From NCBI GenBank assembly GCA_031266345.1, contig JAISBD010000009.1, positions 3,510 to 67,509 on the forward strand: DNA of 64,000 nt, in the 5' to 3' direction. The translations under genes and the position numbers were made by a program. Positions 13,516 through 53,372 of this stretch are shown here, piece after piece (positions within the stretch are counted from its first letter, which is position 1; each line of letters starts with the position of its first letter). The DNA is from Puniceicoccales bacterium. GTDB lineage: Bacteria; Verrucomicrobiota; Verrucomicrobiia; Opitutales; JAIRKQ01. Below the pieces are notes generated by a model. That model was not told where the DNA came from. It was given only the letters and a program-made list of their open reading frames with translations, and made no database searches.

Positions 13516-16500
13516 TCAGAGACTAACTCCAAGCTTTTCCGCTTCATGCCGCCTTTTCTCCAAAATACTTTGAAAGCGATCATGCGTTCGCGGATCTGCA
13601 AGTATTTCGCGCGCTCTCCCAATTGTACTGTGCCCCGGCTCACTCGGTCCATACTGCTGCTCCATTGCAGGCAAGACTTCATCCCGCAAGTACTCCTCCT
13701 CGTCGAAATTTTTATCAACGACGACTTCCATCTCTGAAAACGGAATAACTACGAGTTCCTTTTGCAAATCCGAACAAAATTCATTGGTCAATACCGATGT
13801 CAGTATCGCATAGGCTGGTATTTTCCCATAGAGTGCGGCCTCTCCGTAGGGATACTCGCCCCCCACTGGGCTGACTAGAGCCCACGATTCCACTGGTAAG
13901 GCACGGTTCACATCATAGGTAATAGTTTCCCTAGCCGGTGTTTTTTCCAGTGCACCATGTCGACTTATCCCGGTCAAGGCTTCTCGGCGCACCCTGCGAA
14001 CGGCGAGTACGGTCGGAGGGGGACCTTGGTCGTGCCCTGGGAACGTGGCATGGCGGAGGAGTAACTGCGTATAGGCGTAGTTCAAGGGAAGAAATTTTTT
14101 GGCAATATTTGCCTCTTTAATATACGCATCATCAACATAGTCCCCGGCATCGGGGAATGAGCCTACGTCAATCGGCTGATTCAATACGCCATCTATGACG
14201 GCTTTCCTAACAGGTACCATTTCAGCCGTGGCCATCCATTTCCTCCACACACGCCAATGAGCATTTTTGGGGCCTGAGCCTTTCCTTTCTAAGTCTCCTC
14301 CTATTTTCAGAAGAGGGCTAATCGGTTCATCCGCTATATTTGACCTAAGCTCATCTTTTCCATCTAACCAATCAAAGAATTTTTGCCCACTTTTTCCCAC
14401 AACAGTTCTGCTTGCAGCATCAAACAATTTGCCAGTCCTTACCATATCAAACGCTCCGAGCATAACCCCAGTTTCGGGTTGTATTCCTTGGCCTAGGGCA
14501 TCGAAATCTCTTTGGTCAAAAATATCCCCCAATTCCATTTGCATGCTCGCTGCGGCAACGGAATATATAAAACTATCCTTCCCTTTGCCTTTGAGCCATT
14601 GGCAATTATCCAAAATTCCAGCCAACATTTCCGGTGATTTTGCATGCAATTGTTCAATTAATCCACTTAGCTCCGCAACTTCTTCTGGAGTTTCACATAT
14701 TCCCAAAGCATCGAATGCGGCAGTGAATTCCAGCAGTAATTTCGGCTTGGGAGAAGGTGTAGAGGAGGGTAGGGGAGAGAGCGTAGGTGGTGGTGTTTCA
14801 CCGAGCAAACCGACGGTTTTCGCCTCATTCCGAAATTCATCATAGCCAGTGAGCTTGCCATAATCATCATCTGTATTTTCAATCAACTTCTTCGCTTGTT
14901 CGGCTAATTTCTCCAAAGCTTCATTTACTTGCCCTTCGCTCACACCTTCACGCAGTGTTAGGATCCGTTCCTTAGTGATACTATCTTCTTGATTGGCATC
15001 TAAAAAAGATGTTCCAAACCTAACCCGCCCTACTCTAAAAGAGTCAAGTCGCTGAATCTCCAAGCAATCCGCTTCATGCAGCAGGATGGCAATTGGATCC
15101 TTACCCGCAGCGGGAGAATCTTTGCGCTCAATTGCACTGGCGCAGCGCTTCGCTTGCTCCTGAGAAAGACCCAAATTGCCCAACTCTCTTTCAGCATTTT
15201 GGGCACTCAAGGCATCGAAGATATCAACCTCTTCTCCCTGCCTCCCAGAATCATGGAAAGTCGCTGCAGCTATGGCTAATGCGATGTCATCATCGGACAT
15301 GTCCTCGAATTCTTTAAATAGCGTGCGATACACCCTTGCCACCGCTTCTGTGACCAAAGCAACGCGCGTGCAGTGGTTTACCCCATGAACTGAGGGAAAT
15401 TTCCCAGGGTTTGCCCCAATCATTTCACCTATAACTCCGCCCATCCTAGCTTTGATCTTATCCTCAGGCATTTTTTGTTCATCCAATCTTTGAAACTCTT
15501 GATAGCGCCTTTCTACTTTCTCTGCCCAAGTGGCCCGTGCCCCCTCCCTAAGGAGCTTAAACTGCTGTTCAGTTGTCAACTTAACCCACTTGGTTTTATT
15601 TCCATTATAAATAACCTCGATGTCCTCATATTCCGGAAGAGTTTTCCCATAGTATCTCGCAGCAATACCGTCACAGAGCGACCCAACGTTTATTGGCTGC
15701 CTCGAGGCAGATGGGACTAAAGTTCCGTTTTCCTGTACCTGGTACATGCCGGGCAGACGTCCTGCGGGATCGATAACTTGGGCACCAGTTTCTAATTTTT
15801 TAAGTTGTGCTCCGCCTACCCGTACCTGATATGCGCCGGGTGGCTGCCCCGGAGGATTGGTAACTATAGCCCCAGTCCTTAGTTTTTCAAATCGCGTCCC
15901 ATTTTCCTGCACCTGGTATAGGCCGGGCGACCGTCCCACAGGATCGGCAACTAGAGCATCGGCTTCTAGCTTTTCAAATTTAAATTGCGCTCCGTCTTCC
16001 TGCACCTGATATACGCCGGGTGGCTGCCCCACGGGACAGGCAACTATAGCTCCGATCTCTACTTTTTCAAATTTAAATTGCGTTCTGTCTTCCCGTACCT
16101 CTTCCCGTACCTGGTATAGGCCGGGCAACCGTCCCACAGGATTGGCAACTAGAGCATCGGCTTTTAGTTGTTCAAATTTAAATTGTGTCCCGTTTGCCTG
16201 CACCTGATATACGCCGGGTGGCTGCTCCGGGGGATTGTCAATCACAGTCCCAATCTCTAGTTTTTTAAGTGGCGCTCCATCTCCCTGCACCTGATATACG
16301 CCGGGCGGCTGCCCCCTGGGATTAGCAACCACAACCCCAACCTCCAGTTTTTTAAGTGGCGCCGGCGCCCAACCTCCCTGTACCTGATACATGCCGGGCG
16401 GTTGCCCCGCAGGGTTAGCAATCACAGCTCCAAACTCTAATTTTTTAAGTGGCGCTCCATCTTCCTGCACCTGATACATACCGGATGGCTGCCCCGCAGG

Positions 16501-18090
16501 ACGGGCAACTATAGCCCCGATTTCTAGTTTTTTAAGTGGCACTCCATCTTCCTGCACCTGATATGCGCCGGGTGGCTGCCCCCTGGGATTAGCAACCACA
16601 GCTCCAACCTCTAGTTTTCTAAATGACATTCCGCTTGCCTGTACCAGATATACGCCAGGCAACTGCCCCGGAGGATTGGCAACCGCAGTTCCAGCCTTTA
16701 GTTTCTCAAATCCTGTTCCATCTTCCCGTACCCGATATACACCGGGTGGCTGCCCCACAGGACGGGCAACTATAGCCCCGATTTCTAGTTTTTCAAATGT
16801 AAATCCTGCCTCACCTCCCTGTAACCGATATACACCGGGTGGCTGCCCCGCAGGGTTGGTAACCATAGCTCCAGCCTCTAGTTTTTTAAGTGGCGCTCCA
16901 TCTTCCTGCACATGATATATACCAGATGGCTGCCCCGCAGGATTGACAATTAGAGCTCCAACTTCTAGTTTTCTAAGTGGCATTCCATCTCCCTGCGCCT
17001 GGTATGTACCGAGTGACTGCCCCACGGGGTTAGTAACCACAGCTCCAAACTCTAGTTTTTCAAGTTGCCCAGCACCACCTACCCGATACACCCCCGGTTC
17101 GTAAAGGCCATCTCTGTATCCCTTAGGGTTAACTATGCAGTTGCCAGCGTTTAATTTTTCTAATTTGCCGCCACCTCCCACTCGATAAACATCTTGGGGG
17201 AAATCGGCAAGCCCAGAAATGGTAGTTCCCTCCGATACTTCATACAAAATGGGCCCCTCTCCCTCATCCAGTAATATGCCAGGTTTTTCATTGTAAATGC
17301 CTACTCCTTCCACATCCTCCGAATTTTCTAAACCAATAATCTTTTCGGTGAAAATCGCACTATTGGTGCCCAGTTTTTCAAATGTGAACTCACCGTCTCT
17401 ATCTTTTACCTGGTAAATCCCTTTCGGGAAACCCACGGGATCGATGGCGCAATCCCCGACATTCATCTTTGCTATTCCACCAGCGCCAAGCACTCGGTAA
17501 ACACCCTTCTCGAGGCCAATGGGATTAGCGATGAAAGCATAGGATCCCAGTTTGTGCAATTGCCCGCCTTCCATTTTATATAGACCAGGGCTACTATAAC
17601 CGGAAGGATTCAAAATACCTCTACCCTCTGTGAGGCTTGGTTGGCGTGCCTGAACCCTTTCAGCTAAGCGTCCTTCCAGTGACTGCACTCCCGGTATGCT
17701 TGAAGCTATTTGTCTGGCTTTTTCAAAATTTCCGTGTTTCTCACACAATTCGATGCGGCGTTTGGTAGGCTCGCTTATTTGACCATATTCCGCCTCACCG
17801 ATTAATTCTTTGACACACACCCCTCTCTTTGCCAAAGACTCGCTTTCCGGCCTTAGTCCCAGAGCTATTTCCATGGCTTTAGCGAAATCTCCGTCTTTTT
17901 CAGAATTTTCAATGGAACGCTTGATAGATTCGCTTATTTGGCCATATTCCGCCTCACCAATTAGTGCCTTGACGGTTGTTTCTTCATTTCGTAAACTTAC
18001 GCTCATAATACTCTGCAGTGTAGCGTATGCCCATGAAGTGTCAATTGAATTTAACAAAACTTTTACATATTGGCCCGCAAAAGGGACCAT
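13516..18090 (-). CDS. giant multidomain protein: N-terminal ~52-aa duplication, ~22 x 29-aa repeats, HD-type phosphohydrolase motif region, Pro-rich linker, and a C-terminal domain with R/S/QxE motif spacing
   Basis: 1524-aa uninterrupted ORF. HD motifs: VNH(906)CTRV, AAATFH(946)D(947)SGR, LLH(1005)EAD(1008). Linker: GETPPPTLSPLPSSTPSPKPK (aa 1098-1117). C-terminal motifs: VLAVRR(1365-66), ES(1402)WAL, LQ(1443)KE(1445)LVVIP. The start is ambiguous (M1 at 18090 or M29 at 18006). Confidence 0.85.
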   Translation of the reverse strand: MVPFAGQYVKVLLNSIDTSWAYATLQSIMSVSLRNEETTVKALIGEAEYGQISESIKRSIENSEKDGDFAKAMEIALGLRPESESLAKRGVCVKELIGEAEYGQISEPTKRRIELCEKHGNFEKARQIASSIPGVQSLEGRLAERVQARQPSLTEGRGILNPSGYSSPGLYKMEGGQLHKLGSYAFIANPIGLEKGVYRVLGAGGIAKMNVGDCAIDPVGFPKGIYQVKDRDGEFTFEKLGTNSAIFTEKIIGLENSEDVEGVGIYNEKPGILLDEGEGPILYEVSEGTTISGLADFPQDVYRVGGGGKLEKLNAGNCIVNPKGYRDGLYEPGVYRVGGAGQLEKLEFGAVVTNPVGQSLGTYQAQGDGMPLRKLEVGALIVNPAGQPSGIYHVQEDGAPLKKLEAGAMVTNPAGQPPGVYRLQGGEAGFTFEKLEIGAIVARPVGQPPGVYRVREDGTGFEKLKAGTAVANPPGQLPGVYLVQASGMSFRKLEVGAVVANPRGQPPGAYQVQEDGVPLKKLEIGAIVARPAGQPSGMYQVQEDGAPLKKLEFGAVIANPAGQPPGMYQVQGGWAPAPLKKLEVGVVVANPRGQPPGVYQVQGDGAPLKKLEIGTVIDNPPEQPPGVYQVQANGTQFKFEQLKADALVANPVGRLPGLYQVREEVREDRTQFKFEKVEIGAIVACPVGQPPGVYQVQEDGAQFKFEKLEADALVADPVGRSPGLYQVQENGTRFEKLRTGAIVTNPPGQPPGAYQVRVGGAQLKKLETGAQVIDPAGRLPGMYQVQENGTLVPSASRQPINVGSLCDGIAARYYGKTLPEYEDIEVIYNGNKTKWVKLTTEQQFKLLREGARATWAEKVERRYQEFQRLDEQKMPEDKIKARMGGVIGEMIGANPGKFPSVHGVNHCTRVALVTEAVARVYRTLFKEFEDMSDDDIALAIAAATFHDSGRQGEEVDIFDALSAQNAERELGNLGLSQEQAKRCASAIERKDSPAAGKDPIAILLHEADCLEIQRLDSFRVGRVRFGTSFLDANQEDSITKERILTLREGVSEGQVNEALEKLAEQAKKLIENTDDDYGKLTGYDEFRNEAKTVGLLGETPPPTLSPLPSSTPSPKPKLLLEFTAAFDALGICETPEEVAELSGLIEQLHAKSPEMLAGILDNCQWLKGKGKDSFIYSVAAASMQMELGDIFDQRDFDALGQGIQPETGVMLGAFDMVRTGKLFDAASRTVVGKSGQKFFDWLDGKDELRSNIADEPISPLLKIGGDLERKGSGPKNAHWRVWRKWMATAEMVPVRKAVIDGVLNQPIDVGSFPDAGDYVDDAYIKEANIAKKFLPLNYAYTQLLLRHATFPGHDQGPPPTVLAVRRVRREALTGISRHGALEKTPARETITYDVNRALPVESWALVSPVGGEYPYGEAALYGKIPAYAILTSVLTNEFCSDLQKELVVIPFSEMEVVVDKNFDEEEYLRDEVLPAMEQQYGPSEPGHSTIGRAREILADPRTHDRFQSILEKRRHEAEKLGVSL
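15721..17628 (-). repeat. in-frame tandem coding repeats, 87-nt (29-aa) period with 31- and 35-aa variants, ~22 copies
   Basis: Consensus G(V/M)YQVQEDGAPLKKLE(I/V)GA(I/V)VANPAGQPP. The Y(Q/R)V anchors fall at aa 391, 420, 451, 480, 509, 538, 567, 598, 627, 658, 693, 724, 753 and 782, with more degenerate copies from aa ~160. Confidence 0.9.
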
Positions 18091-44333: not shown

Positions 44334-44380
44334 TTACTATATATGGTACAGTTTAGTTGAAATTTTACTACATATAGTTT
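44334..44380 (+). promoter_or_regulatory. two tandem NrdR boxes upstream of nrdD
   Basis: The boxes are ttaCTATATATGGtac (44334-44349) and ttaCTACATATAGttt (44365-44380). Both match the 16-bp palindromic NrdR-box consensus acaCwAtATaTwGtgt. Their starts are 31 nt apart, and the second ends 30 nt before the nrdD ATG. Confidence 0.75.
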
Positions 44381-44409: not shown

Positions 44410-46566
44410 ATGGAGAATTTTATGAAAGAACCGTCACCCGATAAAAAGTCAGCGATGCAGCTGGCGCGCCTGCCCCACGAAGTTGTGTTGCATAGCCAAA
44501 TTTACCAAATGCTCTTTGAAGTCGGTAAAGCTACGAAGGAGTATGATTCCGATGTCGCCTGGCAGCTAGCCCGCGAAGTGATTTCTAAGACTTGGGAGCA
44601 GTGCCCGGATGGCAGTCCCACCATCGAGCAAATCGAGGATTTCATCGAGCAAGCATTGATGCTGTCGAAATACCACGCCACCGCCAGAACTTTTATCCTG
44701 GCACGCGACCGTAGAAATCGGTCACCGGAAATCGCTGCCAAAGCTGAAATTGCTCGGGTGAATCAGTATATTTCCCGGGCCGACTGGGAAGTGAAGGAGA
44801 ACAGCAACATGAGCTACTCCCTGCAGGGATTGAATCACTACTTATCCGGCGCACTGAGCCAGACATATTGGCTGAATAGCGTTTATCCGGTGCGGATCCG
44901 CAATGCCCATGAATCCGGCGATTTCCACATCCATGATTTGACGCAATTATCGGTGTACTGCGTCGGCTGGGATTTGGCCGACCTGCTGCGCGAAGGCTTT
45001 TGCGGCGTATCGGGGAAGATAGAGGCCCACCCACCCAAGCACCTGCGCACGGCATTGGGGCAGATTGTCAACTTTTTCTACACCCTGCAGGGGGAAGCGG
45101 CCGGAGCACAGGCATTTTCAAATTTCGATACCATACTGGCGCCTTTCATCAGGTTCGATGGGCTCTCCTTTAATCAGGTCAAGCAATCCCTCCAAGAGTT
45201 CATGTTCAACATAAATATTCCGACGCGGGTGGGCTTTCAAACGCCTTTTACTAATATTACCCTGGATCTGTTTTGTCCAAAGCACTTCGCCAACGAATCG
45301 GTCATAATAGGTGGCGAAATCATGAGGGATAAGTATGGCGATTTTCAGCGGGAGATGGATATTTTTAACCGGGCGCTGTTTGAGGTCATGACGGAGGGGG
45401 ATGCCCGCGGCAGGATAATGACGTTTCCCATCCCCACGATCAATCTCACAAAGGATTTCGACTGGGATAATCCCAACCTCGACGGCCTATGGGAGATGAC
45501 GGGCAAGTATGGGATCCCATATTTTTCAAACTTTATCAACTCCGACATGAGCCCGGAGGATGCCCGCTCCATGTGCTGCCGCCTGCGCATCGATAATACG
45601 CAGCTGAAAAAGCGCGGCGGCGGGCTATTCGGAGCAAACCCGCTGACGGGCAGCGTTGGCGTCGTAACCATTAATCTACCTAGAATTGGGTTTCTGGCGA
45701 AGTCGAAAAGCGAATTCTTGGCACGCCTGGCCGCATTGATGGAACTGGCAAGCGAGAGCCTCGAAATCAAGCGGGAACTCCTGGAAAAGCTCACCTCGTC
45801 GAACCTCTACCCCTACACCACCTTCTACTTAAAGGATACTAAGAGGCGCTTCGGAAAGTATTGGGAAAACCACTTTTCCACGATCGGACTCGTCGGCATG
45901 AATGAGGCCTGCTTGAACTTCCTGGGGAAGGACATAACGAGTGCCGAAGGGAAGGAGTTCGCTTTGGAAGTGCTCGATTTCATGCGCAGCAAAATCATGG
46001 ACTTCCAGACGGCTACCGGCAATCTGTATAACCTCGAAGCAACGCCGGCGGAAGGGACATCTTTCCGCTTGGCAAGGAAGGATAAGTCGCGGTTCAAGGA
46101 CTCAATCCTGGCAGCCAATGAGAAGGAACAGCGGAGCGAGGGCGATGTTCCATTCTACACAAATTCCATCCACGTGCCCGTCAATTATACGGAGGACCTA
46201 TTCGCCGTGCTCGACCACCAGGATGAATTACAAACTAAGTTTACCGGTGGAACGGTGGTGCATCTGTTCCTAGGTGAGCGCGTTTCGGATAGGAATGTGG
46301 TCAAGGCGCTTGTTAGGAAGATTGCGCAGGATTATAAGCTGCCCTACTATTCCCTGACGCCGACATTTTCGGTTTGCCCAGACCACGGCTATTTAGTGGG
46401 CGAGCAGGGAACTTGCCCCCATTGCGGCAAGCGCACGGAAATATATTCCCGCATCGTCGGCTACATCCGCCCGGTGCAACAGTGGAATGACGGCAAGCAA
46501 GCCGAGTTCAAGCTGCGCTCAAATCTGTGCTTCAATGGCACATGTCCCTGCGCTCAAGCAAGTTAA
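44410..46566 (+). CDS. nrdD: anaerobic ribonucleoside-triphosphate reductase (class III, NrdD)
   Basis: C-terminal Zn site CPDHGY...CPHCG followed by the glycyl-radical motif SRIVGYIRPV; 718 aa. GGAGA lies 5 nt before the second ATG (44422), so the true start may be 44422. Confidence 0.9.
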   Translation: MENFMKEPSPDKKSAMQLARLPHEVVLHSQIYQMLFEVGKATKEYDSDVAWQLAREVISKTWEQCPDGSPTIEQIEDFIEQALMLSKYHATARTFILARDRRNRSPEIAAKAEIARVNQYISRADWEVKENSNMSYSLQGLNHYLSGALSQTYWLNSVYPVRIRNAHESGDFHIHDLTQLSVYCVGWDLADLLREGFCGVSGKIEAHPPKHLRTALGQIVNFFYTLQGEAAGAQAFSNFDTILAPFIRFDGLSFNQVKQSLQEFMFNINIPTRVGFQTPFTNITLDLFCPKHFANESVIIGGEIMRDKYGDFQREMDIFNRALFEVMTEGDARGRIMTFPIPTINLTKDFDWDNPNLDGLWEMTGKYGIPYFSNFINSDMSPEDARSMCCRLRIDNTQLKKRGGGLFGANPLTGSVGVVTINLPRIGFLAKSKSEFLARLAALMELASESLEIKRELLEKLTSSNLYPYTTFYLKDTKRRFGKYWENHFSTIGLVGMNEACLNFLGKDITSAEGKEFALEVLDFMRSKIMDFQTATGNLYNLEATPAEGTSFRLARKDKSRFKDSILAANEKEQRSEGDVPFYTNSIHVPVNYTEDLFAVLDHQDELQTKFTGGTVVHLFLGERVSDRNVVKALVRKIAQDYKLPYYSLTPTFSVCPDHGYLVGEQGTCPHCGKRTEIYSRIVGYIRPVQQWNDGKQAEFKLRSNLCFNGTCPCAQAS

Positions 46567-46601: not shown

Positions 46602-46695
46602 GCAGCCCATGGTGCCGGGTAATATGGCACTGCGGGCTGCCCTAGGGAAGAGGCGCAACTTACTGGCCTGCAATAAATTGCCAGTAAGTTGCGCC
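46602..46695 (+). terminator. two consecutive strong hairpins in the nrdD to RNR-alpha-like intergenic region
   Basis: Hairpin 1 (46602-46640): gcagccc/gggctgc outer stem plus gtgcc/ggcac inner stem. Hairpin 2 (46652-46695): a perfect 16-bp stem ggcgcaacttactggc/gccagtaagttgcgcc with a 12-nt loop. Neither has an adjacent U-tract (gtgggggagggattttt follows). Confidence 0.45.
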
Positions 46696-46764
46696 GTGGG
46701 GGAGGGATTTTTAGCGGTAAATGTTGACTGGGAGCGGGGAGAAGTTTAATCAATTAGGATAATC

Positions 46765-49700
46765 ATGCACAGGAACCTACAACAAAATTTGGAACTCAAA
46801 AGACTGATCTCCACCCCCAATGAGGAAAAACCATACTTCCGCTGGGCAAGCGTCGTGGCACCGGTCGAGGCTCACAAAGATTGCAACGTGACGAAAATTG
46901 CCTGCGAACTCGGCGAAGCGTTGACCAATGTTTGCCTATCCCGCGGCGAAGCCGATATTTTTACGCAGGAAAATAAGAATCTGATCAATTTGCTGGTAAG
47001 CGATATCGCCGCGGAATCCCTGCGTTGCAAATCGGATTCGCTGAATAGGCACGGGCTCGAACTGCTCGTGGAGGAGGTTCTCGTTCGCAACAAAGCATTG
47101 GATATCGCCCGCGGCTACACCATGAAAAAACGCCTGGAGAGCGAATCCTTCAATGGCGCGCCTCACAGGCCTGAAATTAAGCTGATTAGGCGCAACAAAC
47201 AGGTCGTTCCGTGGAATGAAGCGAAGATAAAAAATGCCGTGATACAGGCTTTTTTGGCCGTGAAGCAGGACCCAACTCCGGCCACAGGGATTGCGGAGGC
47301 GGTGACAAAAGGTATCGTGAATTTTGGGCTATCCTTTGCCCACATCGAGGATGTGCAGGATTGCGTCCAGGAGGAGCTCATGGCGGGCGGGTTTTTCAAG
47401 GTCGCCGAGGCGTACATCCTATATCGGTCTAAGCATGCGCAATTGCGGGAAGGTGGGGCCATCGAAGACCAGGCCGCCGATGCCCCCTTCCAAGAATCGA
47501 TAGTTCTGATAAGGGGTAGCAATGGGAAAAGTTTTCTATGGGACGGCTCCGATTTGCAGGCGAGGATAGCATTTGCACACGAGGGCATAGATTCCCACCT
47601 AACCAGCGACGCCATCATCAGTGCGCTGCGCGACGGCATAGTAAACGAGATGGACCGGGGTGCCCTGCGGGAGCGGGTGGTGGAAAATGCGCGCAGTCTA
47701 ATCGAAAAAGATCCGGGATTCGCGATTTTCGCTGCCCGCATACAGCTTTCCTACCTCTACGAAGAAATTTTTAATTGGCACTGTTCCAGTGACGGGGTCG
47801 AGCAGCTGCGGAATATCCAAAAATCCGCCTTTGAGAGGTACGTCAAGCGTGCCGTTCAACTCGGTTTGCTGCACGGTGACATGCTGAAGTACGACCTCGG
47901 TGCCGTAGCCGCTGAGCTGGATATCCGTGCGGACCTCGAATTTGACGCCATTGCGCTGCAAAGTTTGGTGGAAAATTACCTCATGCGTGACGCTGAACAA
48001 ATAATTCTTGAGACGCCGCAGATGCTGTGGATGCGCGTTGCCATGGGAGTATTCATGGGGCGGGAGCAACCGGACAGAGACGCTATCGCGCTTTATAAGC
48101 TGTTCAGAGACAGGAAGTTTTGCCTATCCACGCCCGCCCTGTACTATGCCGGAACACCGCAGGCACAGATGATGGCGAGCTACGTTTACCACATCGAGGA
48201 TGACCTGGAAAGCATCATGGTACGCGGCATTGCGGATAACGCTTTCATAGCGAAGTGGGGCGGCGGGCTTGGCGGCTCCTGGACGAACGTACGCGGTCGG
48301 GGGACGAAGATCAGGGGCACGAGGGGTGATTCCCCCGGTCTCATCCCTTTTTTGCAGCTGCATCAGCACCAATTGGCCGTGGCGAATCAGGGGGCGGAGC
48401 GGAGGCGGGGCCGCGGGGTGGCCAGTTTGGAGATTTGGCACTGCGACGTGCAAGAATTCATCGATTACAAGAAAAAAGCCGGCCATTCAAGTGTGGGTGG
48501 CGAAGAGCTTGGCACGGTGCTATGGATTCCGGATTTATTCATGGAGCGGCTTAGGGAGGGTGCCGATTGGACGCTATTCAACCCCGAGGACGTTGAAGAT
48601 TTACATGATTTGTATGGGGAGGAGTTCGAGCGACTCTACGCTGAATTGGAGCGGCGGGCTGCCCATGGCGAGATTTTTTCAAAAAAGGTTTCAGTTTCCG
48701 ATCTTTGGCAAAAAATTATGCAGAGAATATTTGAGACCGGATACCCAAAAGTCGCATTCAAAGATACTTGCAATCGTGCCAATATGTGTAAAAATGGGGT
48801 GATCCATTCCCCAAACCTGTGCTTGGAACACATGCTGAACTCCTCCTATGGGGAGACCGCTGTGTGCGGCACGGGGTCGCTCGACATAGGCAAGCATCTG
48901 TGCGACGATGGCTCACTGGACGTAGCCAAGCTGCGCAATACGGTGCGAGTGGCAGTGGGTGCGCTCGATGCCATGATAGATGTGAATTATTTTCCCACGG
49001 AGGCATCGAAGATTTTCGCCCAAAAATACCGGGCAATCGGACTCGGCGTGATGGGGTTCCAAAACGCGCTGTACTACAAAAATGTGCCTTTCAGCAGCCC
49101 GGAAGCACTCAAATTCAGCGATGAGTGCTTCGAATTCATCGCCCATGAGACCATAGGGGAGTCCATCGAGCTCGCTAAAAAATTTGGACCCTGCCCCGTT
49201 TGCGAGTTGACCGAGTGGAAAAAAGGCGTCCTCCCCATGGACTTTTTCCCCAGGAGTGGAGAAACTAGGCTCGATTGGGACTCATTGCGCGGGGTGCTGA
49301 AGAAATTCGGCATCAGAAATGCGTACTTGAATGCCAATTCGCCCACGCGCAAGATTTCGCGGCTGATGAGTTGCTATCCAAGCTTGGCACCGGCAACTAG
49401 GAACGTGTTCACAAAGGAATTGAACAACAATCGTGAGATGATGGTCATTTCGCCGGAACTGGTCAAGACGCTGAAGCAGCACGGCTTCTGGAACAAGGAG
49501 ATACACAAGCAAATTCGCTACTTTGAGGGGGAGCTAGCCGCCATCGATGAGATTTCTGAGGAAATTAAAAACTTATATTGCACGGCATTCATGATCGACA
49601 GCCCGATCCTGCTTGAACACGCATCAATGTGCCAGCGTTGGATCGACCAATCCCAGGCGCTGCGCCTATTCTTAGCCGCCCCCAATTTGCACTCCCTGTC

Positions 49701-49869
49701 GAGCATGTTCATGGATGCGTGGAAGAAGGGGATCAAGGCGATCAACGATGTGAAGTCGGCTGGCTTTGCGCTGAATAAAAATCAGGAAATTTTCGATGAA
49801 GATGCGGATGGAACGAGTGCGATATTGAGTGCCCTTGACCGCTTTCACAGCTGCACCTCGCTGCCATGA
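46765..49869 (+). CDS. ribonucleotide reductase alpha-subunit homologue (class-I-like core) with non-canonical active-site and radical-transfer residues
   Basis: RNR core motifs: STPALYYAGTP, WGGGLGGSW, GLIPF, QGAERRRGRG...LEIWH, SPNLCLEH (N684/C686/E688), AVCGTGS. A degenerate ATP-cone-like segment is IKLIRRNKQVVPWNEAKIKNAV. See the finding for the missing residues. Confidence 0.8.
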   Translation: MHRNLQQNLELKRLISTPNEEKPYFRWASVVAPVEAHKDCNVTKIACELGEALTNVCLSRGEADIFTQENKNLINLLVSDIAAESLRCKSDSLNRHGLELLVEEVLVRNKALDIARGYTMKKRLESESFNGAPHRPEIKLIRRNKQVVPWNEAKIKNAVIQAFLAVKQDPTPATGIAEAVTKGIVNFGLSFAHIEDVQDCVQEELMAGGFFKVAEAYILYRSKHAQLREGGAIEDQAADAPFQESIVLIRGSNGKSFLWDGSDLQARIAFAHEGIDSHLTSDAIISALRDGIVNEMDRGALRERVVENARSLIEKDPGFAIFAARIQLSYLYEEIFNWHCSSDGVEQLRNIQKSAFERYVKRAVQLGLLHGDMLKYDLGAVAAELDIRADLEFDAIALQSLVENYLMRDAEQIILETPQMLWMRVAMGVFMGREQPDRDAIALYKLFRDRKFCLSTPALYYAGTPQAQMMASYVYHIEDDLESIMVRGIADNAFIAKWGGGLGGSWTNVRGRGTKIRGTRGDSPGLIPFLQLHQHQLAVANQGAERRRGRGVASLEIWHCDVQEFIDYKKKAGHSSVGGEELGTVLWIPDLFMERLREGADWTLFNPEDVEDLHDLYGEEFERLYAELERRAAHGEIFSKKVSVSDLWQKIMQRIFETGYPKVAFKDTCNRANMCKNGVIHSPNLCLEHMLNSSYGETAVCGTGSLDIGKHLCDDGSLDVAKLRNTVRVAVGALDAMIDVNYFPTEASKIFAQKYRAIGLGVMGFQNALYYKNVPFSSPEALKFSDECFEFIAHETIGESIELAKKFGPCPVCELTEWKKGVLPMDFFPRSGETRLDWDSLRGVLKKFGIRNAYLNANSPTRKISRLMSCYPSLAPATRNVFTKELNNNREMMVISPELVKTLKQHGFWNKEIHKQIRYFEGELAAIDEISEEIKNLYCTAFMIDSPILLEHASMCQRWIDQSQALRLFLAAPNLHSLSSMFMDAWKKGIKAINDVKSAGFALNKNQEIFDEDADGTSAILSALDRFHSCTSLP

Positions 49870-50033: not shown

Positions 50034-53000
50034 CTAGCGACCTACCGTCCCGACGAGACTGTCCACGTACCCCGGCGAGCTGGCGCGGATAATTTCGCCA
50101 TTGATTTCGTCGATTTTGCTTTGAACACGGGGATCAAAGCCATGGATTCCCATGAACGTGCGCAGGTATTTCTCACCTTTTTTCAGGTGTTCGACGTCCT
50201 GTGCCTGTTTGCTCCTCAGCCGTCCCAGATACCACTCGCTGCCGAGCACATTTTCCCGCCGGAATAGTGCCCTAAAATGCGGAGAATCGAGCGTCATGCC
50301 GCCGAATTCCCCGCGGTGCATGATGCCCAGAAGGGCCCGCAGCGGCGGAATGGCCCATTCGATATCGCTGCTGGACATGATAATCTCGGCGGCACGCCTG
50401 TGTGATTCGACGATATTTGCCATACTGTCGGCGAAAATGGCGAAGTCTTGCTCCTCGGGGCGCAGGATCTCGTCGCCAAAGAGCGAATCGGGGAACGATA
50501 GCACGCGGCCGGCGAATATTTTTATGAATTTTTTCGTTATGCGATACCCCATGCGGCTAAACTGCACAATTCTGCCCCCGCATTCGAAGTCCTTGCAGGG
50601 CTCGAGGTAGCCGTGTTCTATTAGGAAGCGTGGGTTGCGCTCGTGAACTTGCATGCGCGACCAGATCTCCGGCAGTAGGTAGGTGATGTCGTGGGCTACG
50701 TAGAACTTCGGTCCAACGTACCCCGCCGCCGATAAAAACCCGTGGTAACCGCACAATATGAAGGATAGTAGGGCACTATTAAGGTCGTAAACCGCATTCA
50801 GAGCGTTGAATGGACCCTTCGTCATTGCGCCCTCCAGGCCGGCCCCCGTCGTGGAAGGAGATTTCCCTGTCATGCTGGAGGCGTATTCCATGAATAACTC
50901 GGGCAAATCCATGTAGTGCAGGGGATTATACACACTCAATGCCCCTATTTTCCCATCCGGCGGATTGTTCCGTCTGCCGGTCAAAATGGAGTGGACGGGG
51001 AATTTTACATCGGCGATGTTTTTCGTTTGGCTATGCAGTTTCATGCACAGCTTCGAAACGTATACCTCTTCGTGGGCGTACATATCCCGGCGATTTTGCA
51101 GGTAGCGCTCATTTTTGCTCACCTCGCCGTCGGGCATCACTCTCAGCTCCGACGGGCACACCACGTACTTCGGCCCACTGGCGTCACTGAGGAAATTGGC
51201 GAGCAATTCCTTCATTGGCTGGCTATATTTTTCAAACTGAATGCGGTTGGCCACCATGGCACGCACATCGGTCTTTGTAAGTGGTTTATAGTTGCAGGTG
51301 AAGGTGTTAGGCCGCGAAATTTCGTACTCCGTTTCGTGGTCATAGCCCGGGGTAATCGCCTCGTCCGGGCGCTGATAAAGTCGATATTCGCAGTTATGGA
51401 CGAACTTTACGGACGGATTGTCATAGGCTGGGTTGAGCCCCCCAATGGCGTTCGCCGGGAGCGTGACGGAGGAAGTGATGTCATCGGCCAACTGGAGCTT
51501 GAAGGAGGGATAAAAGTCGCCGCGCAGGGAAAAATTTCGCCGAATTTTTTCACCGGTGAAGCCGACGCGGACATACTGATCAACAAGCTTTTCTTGGCGA
51601 TAGTACAGCTCATGGCCGCGCTGCCCATTGACGATGTCGACGGAAAATTTTGACCGCCAATCTGAACCCCAACTTCCTTTGTAAAAAGTCTTTATGGCGA
51701 GGATCAATTCCTTGATGTGGGCAGGGATTGTTTTCAGCCAGCTGTTGTACTCATCCGCATATTTCTCGTTAAAATTCAGGAGTTTTATCACCGAACCGAG
51801 TGTGCGGGCGCTGTCCAGGATGGGACGATCATCCCGGGTGTCTCTATCCCGAAATCTGCCGGAAAAATCCATTTTCAAGATTTTGTCAGCGAGGGCGAAG
51901 TCACCATCGTAGTCGGATAGGAGCATGGAACCGCGTATGATCGCATCCGACAGCGACTTGGCGATTTCAGACTTCCCGCCACCGGACACCGTTGCAGGCT
52001 TGTAGCAGAAGGTACCATTCGGCGACGTACCAATCATCTTCCAACGCTCACCCCCGTGGGAGGGCCGGACCAGGTGAATGCGATACCCATTCGGCAAAAC
52101 GTATATTTTATCCAGCTCGAGGCGCAAAGTCTTCTCCCCATCGCCAAATTTCCACCTTGCCTCCATCTTTGGGAGATTAAAAGTCGCGTTACCCGGGAGG
52201 TACACTAGGGCGGAATAGTTCCTGTCAACTGCATACCCATCGCCCTGCAGCGCCATATTTTCGCCGTTATTTTTCAATAGGTCTTCAAAGGGAAGTTTAC
52301 TTTTCAAAAACTCTTCGTAATTGAATTCGTCGCCGAGGTCATAGCGCGGGAACACCAGCGCGCCGCCGGAATGTTCCTCTTCGCAGAGGCCGTACATATT
52401 AGCGGCGTAGGATAGCTGCGTTTTTATCTCCTTTTTACCATAGCCGTTGTAGCTATCGCCGATGATGGAAACAATTACACCGGAATTTGAACGTGCAACG
52501 GCACGGAATGGGCGGCCGTCATGGTATAATTCGTCCCCCCGTTCCCAGCACATGCCATCCCGTTTTTGCCGCTCGGTAGCCGCGGAGACGTGGGGGAGGC
52601 CCAGCTCTTTCTTTGTGCACTTGCGCAGCTGCGGGGCAAAAACTATGCAGCCCGTGTGCCCGGACCAGGATTGGGGATCCATGGCAGCGTCATTTTCCGG
52701 CAAAAATGGCGAGCCGGCGTTGCCAAATATGCTCTCCGTGCAGTCCAGTACACTGACCATGCTTCCTGGCAAAAATAGGCGAATTTCCATGTTTTTCGGG
52801 GAAATATTTCCACCGACTTCTGGGCATATTATCGGCTTAAAATAGGCCGAAACAAATATCTTAGCCCCAAATTCTTGCTCCGACGAAAACGGCAGCAGAA
52901 GCATGTCTTCCGGCGGATTGAATGCTAATTTGAGCATGCTGGCGAAGGCTTGTTTGGGGATTTCTTTTTTATCGCTCGGCACTGGGAAACCACCTTCGGC

Positions 53001-53372
53001 GATGTGAAAAGTACCGGCGGTTGTTCGCTTATCCGTGGAAGGATTGTTCAGGATCCCCTGGTATATGCGGTAGCTATCGACGTACTCACAGTGAAACTCA
53101 TCCCTCCCTTCCGGCAGGGATAGTAGGCGCGAAACCCCGTGTCTGTCGCAGATGAAGGAAAATTTCGGCAGCCAGGAATGATCGGGAGCAGTGCCCAAAT
53201 ATTCATTCAAAAAAGTGTTTATTCTACCATCGACGGGGGCTTGCTCCCGAGGACTTGCGGCATCGCGGCTGAGCGCGGCCAATTGCTCCCTAATTGCGGC
53301 TATGTCCTCCGCAGCAATCCCAATATTATTTCCCCTATCATCGATCCCCAATGGGCGCTCCAACTTATTCAT
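50034..53372 (-). CDS. large (1112-aa) conserved-looking cytoplasmic protein of unassigned function; tentative candidate PPi-type PEP carboxykinase
   Basis: Long uninterrupted ORF with globular, non-repetitive composition and a P-loop-like CYKPATVSGGGKSEI (aa 463-468). The PPi-PEPCK suggestion rests only on size, cytoplasmic enzyme-like character and anaerobic context. It does not rest on a motif I can verify. Confidence 0.8.
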   Translation of the reverse strand: MNKLERPLGIDDRGNNIGIAAEDIAAIREQLAALSRDAASPREQAPVDGRINTFLNEYLGTAPDHSWLPKFSFICDRHGVSRLLSLPEGRDEFHCEYVDSYRIYQGILNNPSTDKRTTAGTFHIAEGGFPVPSDKKEIPKQAFASMLKLAFNPPEDMLLLPFSSEQEFGAKIFVSAYFKPIICPEVGGNISPKNMEIRLFLPGSMVSVLDCTESIFGNAGSPFLPENDAAMDPQSWSGHTGCIVFAPQLRKCTKKELGLPHVSAATERQKRDGMCWERGDELYHDGRPFRAVARSNSGVIVSIIGDSYNGYGKKEIKTQLSYAANMYGLCEEEHSGGALVFPRYDLGDEFNYEEFLKSKLPFEDLLKNNGENMALQGDGYAVDRNYSALVYLPGNATFNLPKMEARWKFGDGEKTLRLELDKIYVLPNGYRIHLVRPSHGGERWKMIGTSPNGTFCYKPATVSGGGKSEIAKSLSDAIIRGSMLLSDYDGDFALADKILKMDFSGRFRDRDTRDDRPILDSARTLGSVIKLLNFNEKYADEYNSWLKTIPAHIKELILAIKTFYKGSWGSDWRSKFSVDIVNGQRGHELYYRQEKLVDQYVRVGFTGEKIRRNFSLRGDFYPSFKLQLADDITSSVTLPANAIGGLNPAYDNPSVKFVHNCEYRLYQRPDEAITPGYDHETEYEISRPNTFTCNYKPLTKTDVRAMVANRIQFEKYSQPMKELLANFLSDASGPKYVVCPSELRVMPDGEVSKNERYLQNRRDMYAHEEVYVSKLCMKLHSQTKNIADVKFPVHSILTGRRNNPPDGKIGALSVYNPLHYMDLPELFMEYASSMTGKSPSTTGAGLEGAMTKGPFNALNAVYDLNSALLSFILCGYHGFLSAAGYVGPKFYVAHDITYLLPEIWSRMQVHERNPRFLIEHGYLEPCKDFECGGRIVQFSRMGYRITKKFIKIFAGRVLSFPDSLFGDEILRPEEQDFAIFADSMANIVESHRRAAEIIMSSSDIEWAIPPLRALLGIMHRGEFGGMTLDSPHFRALFRRENVLGSEWYLGRLRSKQAQDVEHLKKGEKYLRTFMGIHGFDPRVQSKIDEINGEIIRASSPGYVDSLVGTVGR

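Follow-up and report, generated by a model that had tools for sequence, protein, structure and literature searches.

A conserved class I-like ribonucleotide reductase alpha homologue of Puniceicoccales without Cys225, an intact Tyr-Tyr dyad or a C-terminal cysteine pair

De novo synthesis of DNA precursors depends entirely on ribonucleotide reductases (RNRs), the three classes of which are defined by the way in which the thiyl radical is generated and the active site re-reduced. In class I, Tyr731 and Tyr730 of the alpha subunit (NrdA, or R1) form the radical path from NrdB, Cys225 is the hydrogen donor and disulfide partner, and a C-terminal cysteine pair carries out the re-reduction. We know of no class I RNR that does without Tyr731/Tyr730, Cys225 and the C-terminal pair, and the supporting work is reportedly that of Ekberg (1996), Mao (1992) and Kasrayan (2002). 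An overview of these requirements is given in PMC4390871. Class II NrdJ, which belongs to the same barrel superfamily, works without a beta subunit and has no Tyr-Tyr dyad but keeps the Cys225 equivalent. It also has a C-terminal dithiol, and the formate-type class III enzymes of anaerobes (E. coli and phage T4 NrdD) have two active-site cysteines and no C-terminal pair (PMC4390871). Inactive, repurposed R1 homologues have been described from betaherpesviruses, i.e. human cytomegalovirus (HCMV) UL45, murine cytomegalovirus (MCMV) M45 and human herpesvirus 6B (HHV-6B) R1, which share the R1 fold, have suffered catalytic losses and have no working R2 (PMC5469499, PMC11772975).

We report on a gene for a class-I-like RNR alpha homologue (hereafter the RNR-like protein) in a window of 64,000 nucleotides, i.e. 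the whole stretch of DNA that was analysed, from a Puniceicoccales bacterium. The gene represents a bacterial R1 lineage, itself conserved, in which NrdB-dependent radical input and dithiol re-reduction have been given up and the thiyl cysteine and all of the allosteric machinery retained. The gene and its domains are located as follows.

46765..49869, + strand: class-I-like RNR alpha homologue, complete open reading frame (ORF; ATG at 46765, TGA at 49867-49869; 1034 amino acids (aa) plus stop)
46765..47154, + strand: N-terminal all-helical domain, residues 1-130; common to canonical Opitutae NrdA, without a Pfam family
47179..47439, + strand: ATP-cone, residues 139-225 (Pfam, 71 bits)
47938..48162, + strand: Ribonuc_red_lgN all-alpha domain, residues 392-466 (Pfam)
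48178..49743, + strand: ten-stranded barrel, residues 472-993 (Pfam Ribonuc_red_lgC, E 1e-140; model)

The RNR-like protein has the fold and domain order of a class I alpha subunit, with an N-terminal helical domain, an ATP-cone, a degenerate cone, an all-alpha domain and the barrel. Its best solved relative according to HMMER is Pseudomonas aeruginosa NrdA (5im3, E 1e-162), and for the AlphaFold2 model (mean predicted local distance difference test score, pLDDT, 77.5) the best Foldseek matches were class I R1 structures (TM 0.77-0.89, normalised to the target). Among the NCBIfam models it scores 500 bits with TIGR02506 (NrdE_NrdA; above the cut-off of 341), 712 bits with NF005544, the closest equivalog (below the cut-off of 965), and 294 bits with TIGR02504 (NrdJ; below the cut-off of 400), and the NrdJ NF models all stayed far under their cut-offs. 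No NRDD or Gly_radical Pfam domain was found at E <= 0.01. The class I models and structures, and not those of class II, score best, and the protein is on this comparison of class I descent, as had been proposed from the DNA letters by a preceding sequence-only reading.

A search of 5.8 billion proteins returned 27 clusters at 54-82% identity, nine of them named 'MAG: Puniceicoccales bacterium' (MAG, metagenome-assembled genome), and below these the identity falls sharply to 43-44% for canonical Opitutae NrdA, e.g. of Coraliomargarita akajimensis and Puniceicoccus vermicola. Scanning the GTDB species genomes added 22 loci, all in Puniceicoccales/Opitutales MAGs, most of which carry termite-gut bin names. 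The clade as we use it comprises 41 distinct homologues at 54-83% identity, each of them from a Puniceicoccales/Opitutales MAG and most from termite gut; the genomes compared are MAGs and not complete genomes. Clade-bearing MAGs include JAIRMI, JAITOW, JAIRON, JAITIO, JAIRMM, JAITET, JAITRI, JAITAS, JAIRYE, JAITBI, JAISYR, JAIRXR, JAIRKQ, JAISRG, JAIRXJ, JAISBO, JAISXS and JAZXWP. Homologues with the same substitutions, which the sequence-only reading had proposed to look for, therefore exist: all 41 have Ser225, Asp/Glu731 and a tail without a Cys pair, and none of these states occurs in 10 canonical Opitutae NrdA, so the residue pattern goes beyond chance. When the window gene was compared with two relatives (loci L004 and L005), the proportions of nonsynonymous and synonymous differences were pN ~0.10 and pS 0.69-0.74, respectively, and the rate ratio dN/dS was 0.03-0.06; for nrdD of the same species pair it was 0.02.

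Residue equivalences were derived from the HMMER alignment to 5im3 and a MAFFT alignment with E. coli NrdA, and residue patterns were counted in the 41 clade sequences and the 10 canonical Opitutae NrdA. In the alignment to 5im3, QMMASYVY stands opposite QLSSCYLT of NrdA, HSPNLCLEH opposite HSSNLCTEI, ETAVCGTGS opposite EIAVCNLGS and GIKAIND opposite GLKTTYY. The positions concerned are the following.

48178..48180, + strand: Ser472, codon AGC, at the Cys225 position (Ser in 41/41 clade, Cys in 10/10 canonical sequences)
48748..48750, + strand: Lys662 at the position of E. coli Tyr413 (Trp in canonical Opitutae NrdA)
48814..48831, + strand: finger loop N684-L-C686-L-E688-H689, spanning the Asn437, Cys439 and Glu441 equivalents
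48814-48816, + strand: N684, Asn437 equivalent (Asn in 19 and Gly in 22 of 41 clade sequences; Asn in canonical)
48820-48822, + strand: C686, codon TGC, Cys439 equivalent (Cys in 41/41, canonical the same)
48826-48828, + strand: E688, Glu441 equivalent (Glu in 41/41, canonical the same)
48865..48867, + strand: Cys701, Cys462 equivalent (Cys in 41/41, canonical the same)
49342..49356, + strand: substrate phosphate-binding loop P-T-R-K-I (41/41 clade sequences; canonical P-T-A-T-I), a gain of two basic residues
49744..49749, + strand: Asn994-Asp995 at the Tyr730-Tyr731 positions (alignments)
49753..49767, + strand: K-S-A-G-F, residues 997-1001, just past the last barrel strand; fixed in the clade (canonical R-T-L-G-A)
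49807..49851, + strand: conserved C-terminal amphipathic segment D-x-T-x-A-[MIV]-x-x-x-L-x-x-F in place of the CxxC tail; helix predicted with low confidence
47782-47784, 48787-48789, 49126-49128, 49192-49194 and 49372-49374, + strand: codons of Cys340, Cys675, Cys788, Cys810 and Cys870

Both alignments agree with the earlier statement that Ser472 replaces Cys225 and that the Asn, the thiyl Cys, the Glu and the Cys462 equivalent are kept. The dyad had been described as Asn-Asp, which is correct for the window protein but does not hold clade-wide, where the pattern is [Y/N/H/S] followed by [D/E] and Asn-Asp is restricted to one subclade: position 731 is Asp in 33 and Glu in 8 sequences, and position 730 is Tyr in 26, Asn in 7, His in 7 and Ser in 1, with Tyr at both in canonical NrdA. 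Likewise, the tail has the single cysteine that had been noted, C1030, which the relatives do not conserve; no clade member has a C-terminal pair, while 9/10 canonical sequences have CxxC. With the Tyr-Tyr route, Cys225 and the C-terminal shuttle gone, the inference that the standard radical input and dithiol reduction are unusable stands. The effector site D232, R262 and I268 and loop 2 residues Q294 and R298 (E. coli numbering) are kept in clade and canonical sequences.

Several replacements are specific to the clade. His689, at the Ile442 position, is invariant, Tyr460-Tyr461 in the lgN domain replace the canonical Phe-Asn, and five new cysteines stand where canonical Opitutae NrdA has Ile (340), Asp (675), Phe (788), Tyr (810) and Thr/Ser (870); that at 810 is present in 40/41 sequences and the others in 41/41. 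Lys662, which according to the E. coli R1 literature adjoins the former Tyr730/731 stack, is a likely salt-bridge partner of Asp995. In total, and with these positions included, 72 columns are fixed for one residue in the clade and for another in canonical NrdA, and 249 are invariant in both alike. A variable linker separates KSAGF from the D-x-T-x-A segment, and no convincing match was seen between the C-terminal helix and the C. akajimensis NrdB tail. KSAGF lies 34 residues before the end and was considered as a glycyl-radical site (fingerprint sought, R-[IVT]-[CSA]-G-[YF]). This was set aside as unsupported: the protein has no Gly_radical/NRDD domain, canonical RTLGA occupies the same columns, and in the model the motif ends the last barrel strand. 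Compared with class Ia alpha subunits with several ATP-cones (5im3, C. akajimensis; Opitutae 43-44% identical), the RNR-like protein thus shares fold, domain order, N-terminal helical domain, ATP-cone, effector site, loop 2, finger-loop Cys/Glu and Cys462 and differs in having Ser225, Asp/Glu731, no CxxC, PTRK for PTAT, Lys at 413, no adjacent nrdB and a score below the NF005544 cut-off. It differs from NrdJ, on whose model it scores lower than on class I models, in having neither the Cys225 equivalent nor the C-terminal dithiol.

That no nrdB is adjacent had been noted before and was borne out: neither NrdB nor NrdG was detected by tblastn in the 64-kb window, and nrdB was found at 0/26 clade loci (the window and 25 others, with up to 10 kb of flank on each side and less on short contigs). 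It lies nearby in 78/81 canonical Opitutae-type loci and in 38/46 Patescibacteria loci. The 81 control loci came from a metagenome scan with a clade-only alignment, and generic patterns returned only canonical Opitutae NrdA. Six closely related loci of subclade B (54-58% identity), and no others, have an NrdG2 activase gene (TIGR02495, 204 bits) at a distance of three genes on the upstream side, where it may simply serve NrdD. A separate search for NrdB, dominated by near-identical marine sequences, gave one termite-gut Puniceicoccales NrdB (P0382), the accession of which is distant from those of eight clade-bearing MAG proteins (a heuristic with n=1). On a termite-gut Puniceicoccales MAG contig (L159, 6001-7092) there is a canonical nrdB 82% identical to the C. 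akajimensis gene, so that not all gut Puniceicoccales have dropped class I RNR.

In an HMMER scan of 1.84 billion cluster representatives the whole clade was covered by one representative (P0026, a subclade-B orthologue with Asn437 and Tyr730 retained). Among the 149 next representatives 29 were non-canonical at 225 or 730/731, and several full-length ones were also without Cys439 and/or Cys462. Two of these, P0123 and P0121, are termite-gut Puniceicoccales MAG proteins 42% and 41% identical to the window protein, respectively, with full-length ORFs and the derived LHQHQL and C-terminal motifs of the clade. In these two, position 225 is occupied by Thr or Asp, Gly or no residue stands for Cys439 (in P0121, GPGHS is aligned to NLCLE), loop 2 is degenerate and the PTRK loop is missing, and they keep the ATP-cone and effector-site D232/R262/I268. 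In a distance-based neighbour-joining (NJ) tree they are the sister group of the clade, a placement open to long-branch attraction. Together with P0128, P0129 and others they resemble the RNR-like protein in being full-length, stand-alone and composed of ATP-cone, lgN and lgC, and differ from it by the further loss of Cys439 and/or Cys462, loop 2 and PTRK; as judged from these sequences, degeneration in this NrdA-like series has gone least far in the clade of the RNR-like protein.

Full-length NrdA-like proteins with an ATP-cone and without Cys225 and the Tyr-Tyr dyad were also seen as P0125, P0126, P0132, P0143, P0152, P0160, P0168 and P0171, in addition to P0121, P0123, P0128 and P0129 (the loci given for these proteins are L155-L158). 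Most also lack Cys439 and/or Cys462, and one group has SLFGES for NLC.E; the few source names given are Verrucomicrobiota, and the genes stand alone without nrdB. Many full-length NrdA-like proteins among the nearest database representatives are without all the catalytic cysteines, so that dead R1 homologues appear to recur among bacteria. The contig of P0123 bears a TLC nucleotide translocase gene, which suggests an intracellular lifestyle.

Sequence constraint also differs between the domains. Overall identity is 56% between subclade A (at least 67% identity) and subclade B and 54% between two canonical groups, so cone and barrel can be compared at matched divergence. ATP-cone identity is 60% between the subclades and 40% between the canonical groups, and barrel identity 63% and 65%, respectively. 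Between clade and canonical sequences the cone is the best-conserved domain (57%, barrel 46%), the reverse of the canonical pattern. On these values, constraint has moved away from the barrel and onto the ATP-cone. By the residue counts, erosion of the catalytic site proceeds in steps, with Asn437 changed to Gly in 22/41, Tyr730 to Asn, His or Ser in 15/41 and Cys439 lost in the two sisters.

Since three essentials have been lost in 41/41 sequences, further losses follow by sublineage and the sensing parts persist, the most economical reading would be that the RNR-like protein is an R1 without catalytic function that has been retained to bind nucleotides, as a sensor or a regulator; we give it a probability of roughly 0.45. 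The absence of nrdB (0/26 loci against 78/81 canonical ones) and the maintenance of the gene at a dN/dS of 0.03-0.06 lean the same way, and the betaherpesvirus R1 proteins would be an analogous precedent, with the difference that they are viral and target host signalling proteins, whereas the RNR-like protein is a cellular bacterial one that keeps the ATP-cone, the effector site and the thiyl cysteine (PMC5469499, PMC11772975). The ancestor would have been an Opitutae-type class I NrdA of the multi-ATP-cone type, like P. aeruginosa NrdA, and the NrdB partner and the redox chemistry would have been lost in anaerobic, gut-associated Puniceicoccales/Opitutales, with strong purifying selection keeping the protein as a nucleotide binder and not as a working reductase. 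It may still dimerise, with ATP/dATP bound at the cone and deoxynucleoside triphosphates (dNTPs) bound at the effector site of the dimer interface. A phosphate-rich nucleotide would probably bind in the old catalytic pocket, which has gained Arg862 and Lys863, and the radical-entry channel would be closed by the Lys662-Asp/Glu995 pair in place of the aromatic stack. Bound nucleotides could serve to sense or buffer nucleotide pools, and the output could be control of NrdD-dependent dNTP supply or of replication.

Several observations weigh against such a role. Cys439, Glu441, Cys462, loop 2 (Q542, R547) and Thr209 are invariant in 41/41, and these kept residues, with the two basic gains fixed in the phosphate loop, look like those of a pocket that is still used, possibly catalytically. 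Ser225 and Asp/Glu731 are fixed and not drifting, the five new cysteines (340, 675, 788, 810 and 870) and His689 lack an explanation, no partner or output for a sensor was found in this analysis, and the NJ placement of P0121/P0123 as sisters could reflect the long-branch attraction mentioned above. With about one-third of the columns invariant in the clade, single-residue invariance is weak evidence either way.

The main alternative is an active RNR of a new subclass, a serious contender that we nevertheless consider clearly less probable, in which Cys686 would form a thiyl radical without NrdB and a new reductant would be used. The radical could stem from a cofactor in alpha at the remodelled entry site, from adenosylcobalamin (AdoCbl) as in class II, for the base-on binding of which no sequence motif is known, or from a protein radical installed by NrdG, and bottom-face Cys701 with a small reductant, e.g. 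formate, could carry out the reduction as in formate-type class III. Cys439, Glu441 and Cys462 together with an intact loop 2, effector site and ATP-cone are what a four-substrate reductase needs, the PTRK loop could suit a triphosphate substrate, and the polar residues K662, C675, K676, H689, D/E995 and K997 cluster round the finger loop and the former Tyr stack. Moreover, the gene adjoins a true nrdD in subclade A and lies three genes from NrdG2 in one subclade-B lineage, and a downstream Fe/Mn superoxide dismutase (SOD) gene in several relatives hints at a role when oxygen inactivates NrdD. Against this, two innovations, radical source and reductant, would be required at once, and the retained Cys462 is not the C2' hydrogen donor of class I, which is Cys225; the C225S mutant of E. 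coli R1 is reportedly suicidal (Mao et al. 1992) and Asn437 is said to be essential in class I (Kasrayan et al. 2002), while here Asn437 is Gly in 22/41 and Tyr730 varies. The sister proteins are without Cys439, the Gly_radical/NRDD match is missing, KSAGF is no nearer to RVxG[YF] than RTLGA is and ends a strand instead of forming an inserted loop, the NrdJ score is below cut-off, and neither an NrdR box nor a riboswitch precedes the gene. The formate-type class III enzymes, which presumably keep the Cys225 equivalent, would also differ in that the RNR-like protein keeps the bottom-face Cys462 equivalent. It counts in favour of an active enzyme that two active-site cysteines without a C-terminal pair are the pattern of formate-using class III (PMC4390871), from which the protein differs further in its lack of NRDD/Gly_radical, of a Zn ribbon and of a recognisable glycyl-radical loop and in keeping Glu441. 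Somewhat more doubtful than an active enzyme in general is the specific version in which a self-sufficient RNR arose from a class I alpha in anaerobes; its thiyl radical would be formed without NrdB, by means of a cofactor at the rebuilt entry site (Lys662, Cys675, Lys676, His689, Asp/Glu995), of AdoCbl or of installation by NrdG, and one cysteine would serve for reduction with the help of formate or some other small reductant.

It is improbable, though less so than the remaining explanations, that the old active site performs a different nucleotide chemistry and not 2'-reduction, possibly non-radical via Cys686/Glu688/His689/Cys701 and with the allosteric sites kept for regulation. The fixed replacements at 225 (Ser), 442 (His) and 623-624 (Arg-Lys), the new invariant cysteines and the strong purifying selection fit such a change; but the class I/II barrel has no known precedent for non-reductase chemistry, neither Asn437 nor Tyr730 is constant among the clade members, and the neighbours differ by subclade with no co-conserved pathway genes. 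A conventional class I alpha with an unusual radical path and an NrdB encoded elsewhere in the genome is very unlikely, even though MAGs do not cover whole genomes and a canonical NrdB (P0382) is present in one or more termite-gut Puniceicoccales MAGs: position 731 is Asp/Glu in 41/41, Lys takes the place of the neighbouring aromatic residue (Trp in canonical sequences, Tyr413 in E. coli), the protein has neither Cys225 nor the cysteines of the tail, nrdB adjacent in 78/81 canonical loci is adjacent in 0/26 of the clade, and P0382 is remote in accession from the eight MAG proteins of the clade with which it was compared. The sequence-only reading had also named a decaying pseudogene, which the loss of several catalytic residues might suggest and to which an assembly artefact can be added; this is refuted for practical purposes by the 1034 intact codons, full-length homologues in more than 40 independent assemblies, a conserved promoter and pN of 0.10 against pS of 0.69-0.74, and the dN/dS values exclude it. 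Of its other proposals, i.e. a reprogrammed enzyme, a pseudoenzyme or a new subclass, a distinct conserved subclass is supported by the 41 homologues, and the choice among the rest leans towards a pseudoenzyme or sensor.

If inactive, the RNR-like protein would apparently be the first protein of a cellular organism to parallel the dead R1 proteins of viruses and a natural case of an RNR turned nucleotide sensor. If active, it would represent a new RNR class and a fourth mode of initiating ribonucleotide reduction, and only then would the clade be categorically new. A literature search on this clade, or on any class I alpha without Cys225 and beta, returned nothing relevant. Databases label the clade proteins as ordinary 'ribonucleoside-diphosphate reductase subunit alpha', which would mislead the metabolic reconstruction of termite-gut Verrucomicrobia, e.g. 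by inference of aerobic dNTP synthesis.

The window comes from the chromosome of an anaerobe and has genes for an Fe-only hydrogenase, gyrase, GAPDH, NrdD and a protein whose L001 homologue has a domain of phosphoenolpyruvate carboxykinase (PEPCK). The elements upstream of the RNR-like gene are:

44336-44347 and 44367-44378, + strand: NrdR-box-like palindromes ACTATATATGGT and ACTACATATAGT, 31 bp apart, upstream of nrdD
44410..46566, + strand: nrdD, class III anaerobic RNR (NF006126, 1006 bits; glycyl motif RIVGY at 681-685)
46724..46752, + strand: promoter-like element TTGACT ... TTTAATCA (from an alignment of spacers; putative function)

The position after nrdD had been regarded as suggestive, and in subclade A the order nrdD, RNR-like gene, PEPCK (minus strand), TrmA does begin with nrdD at 7/7 loci with upstream sequence. 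A constant linkage of homologues to nrdD, which had also been considered, does not hold: nrdD is the upstream neighbour in subclade A only, the order in subclade B is Na+/H+ antiporter, RNR-like gene, Mur-ligase-like, SufBD-like, and one subclade-B locus has nrdD 9 kb off on the opposite strand. The RNR-like gene also has its own putative promoter, TTGAC and TTAAT of which are invariant in 7/7 subclade-A spacers between nrdD and the RNR-like gene. The palindromes resemble a tandem NrdR operator, and we take them to be NrdR boxes according to the published consensus; they occur only at nrdD, and none was found ahead of the RNR-like gene in the window or upstream of 17 subclade-B copies scanned. 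The nrdD/RNR-like spacer and the flanks were also checked for riboswitches and further RNA elements, and the idea was rejected, as Rfam gave only noise and the hairpins are not conserved. The spacer of the window has two perfect or near-perfect hairpins (46602-46640 and 46652-46695, the second with a 16-bp stem), which lack conservation in the six related spacers and belong to no Rfam family.

The finger loop of NrdD, SMCCRL, has two adjacent cysteines (residues 389-390, window 45571-45576), which we assume to be typical of the thioredoxin-using NrdD2 and not of the formate type; if NrdD2-type, the link of the locus to formate would be weaker. In five subclade-A relatives a Fe/Mn SOD gene follows the RNR-like gene directly on the same strand:

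L001, 13153-13797: Fe/Mn SOD
L007, 5477-6109: Fe/Mn SOD
L023, 13115-13747: Fe/Mn SOD
L004, 7526-8141: Fe/Mn SOD, spread over two reading frames
L006, 3132-3644: Fe/Mn SOD, only 39% identical

The SOD gene is missing in the window, where 165 bp separate the RNR-like gene from the next ORF. This ORF (50034-53372, minus strand, 1112 aa) has no Pfam match and lies downstream of the RNR-like gene throughout subclade A; its L001 homologue (67% identical) carries PF26300, lobe 2 of pyrophosphate (PPi)-dependent PEPCK. Another ORF of the window (13516-18090, minus strand, 1524 aa) matched no Pfam family at E <= 1e-5. Finally, contigs of relatives carry the following genes, which point to host-cell-associated or intracellular Puniceicoccales.

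L156, 6582-8105: TLC ATP/ADP translocase
L024, 7689-8207: CesT-type type III secretion chaperone
L003, 1087-1650: type III secretion system (T3SS) needle-like protein

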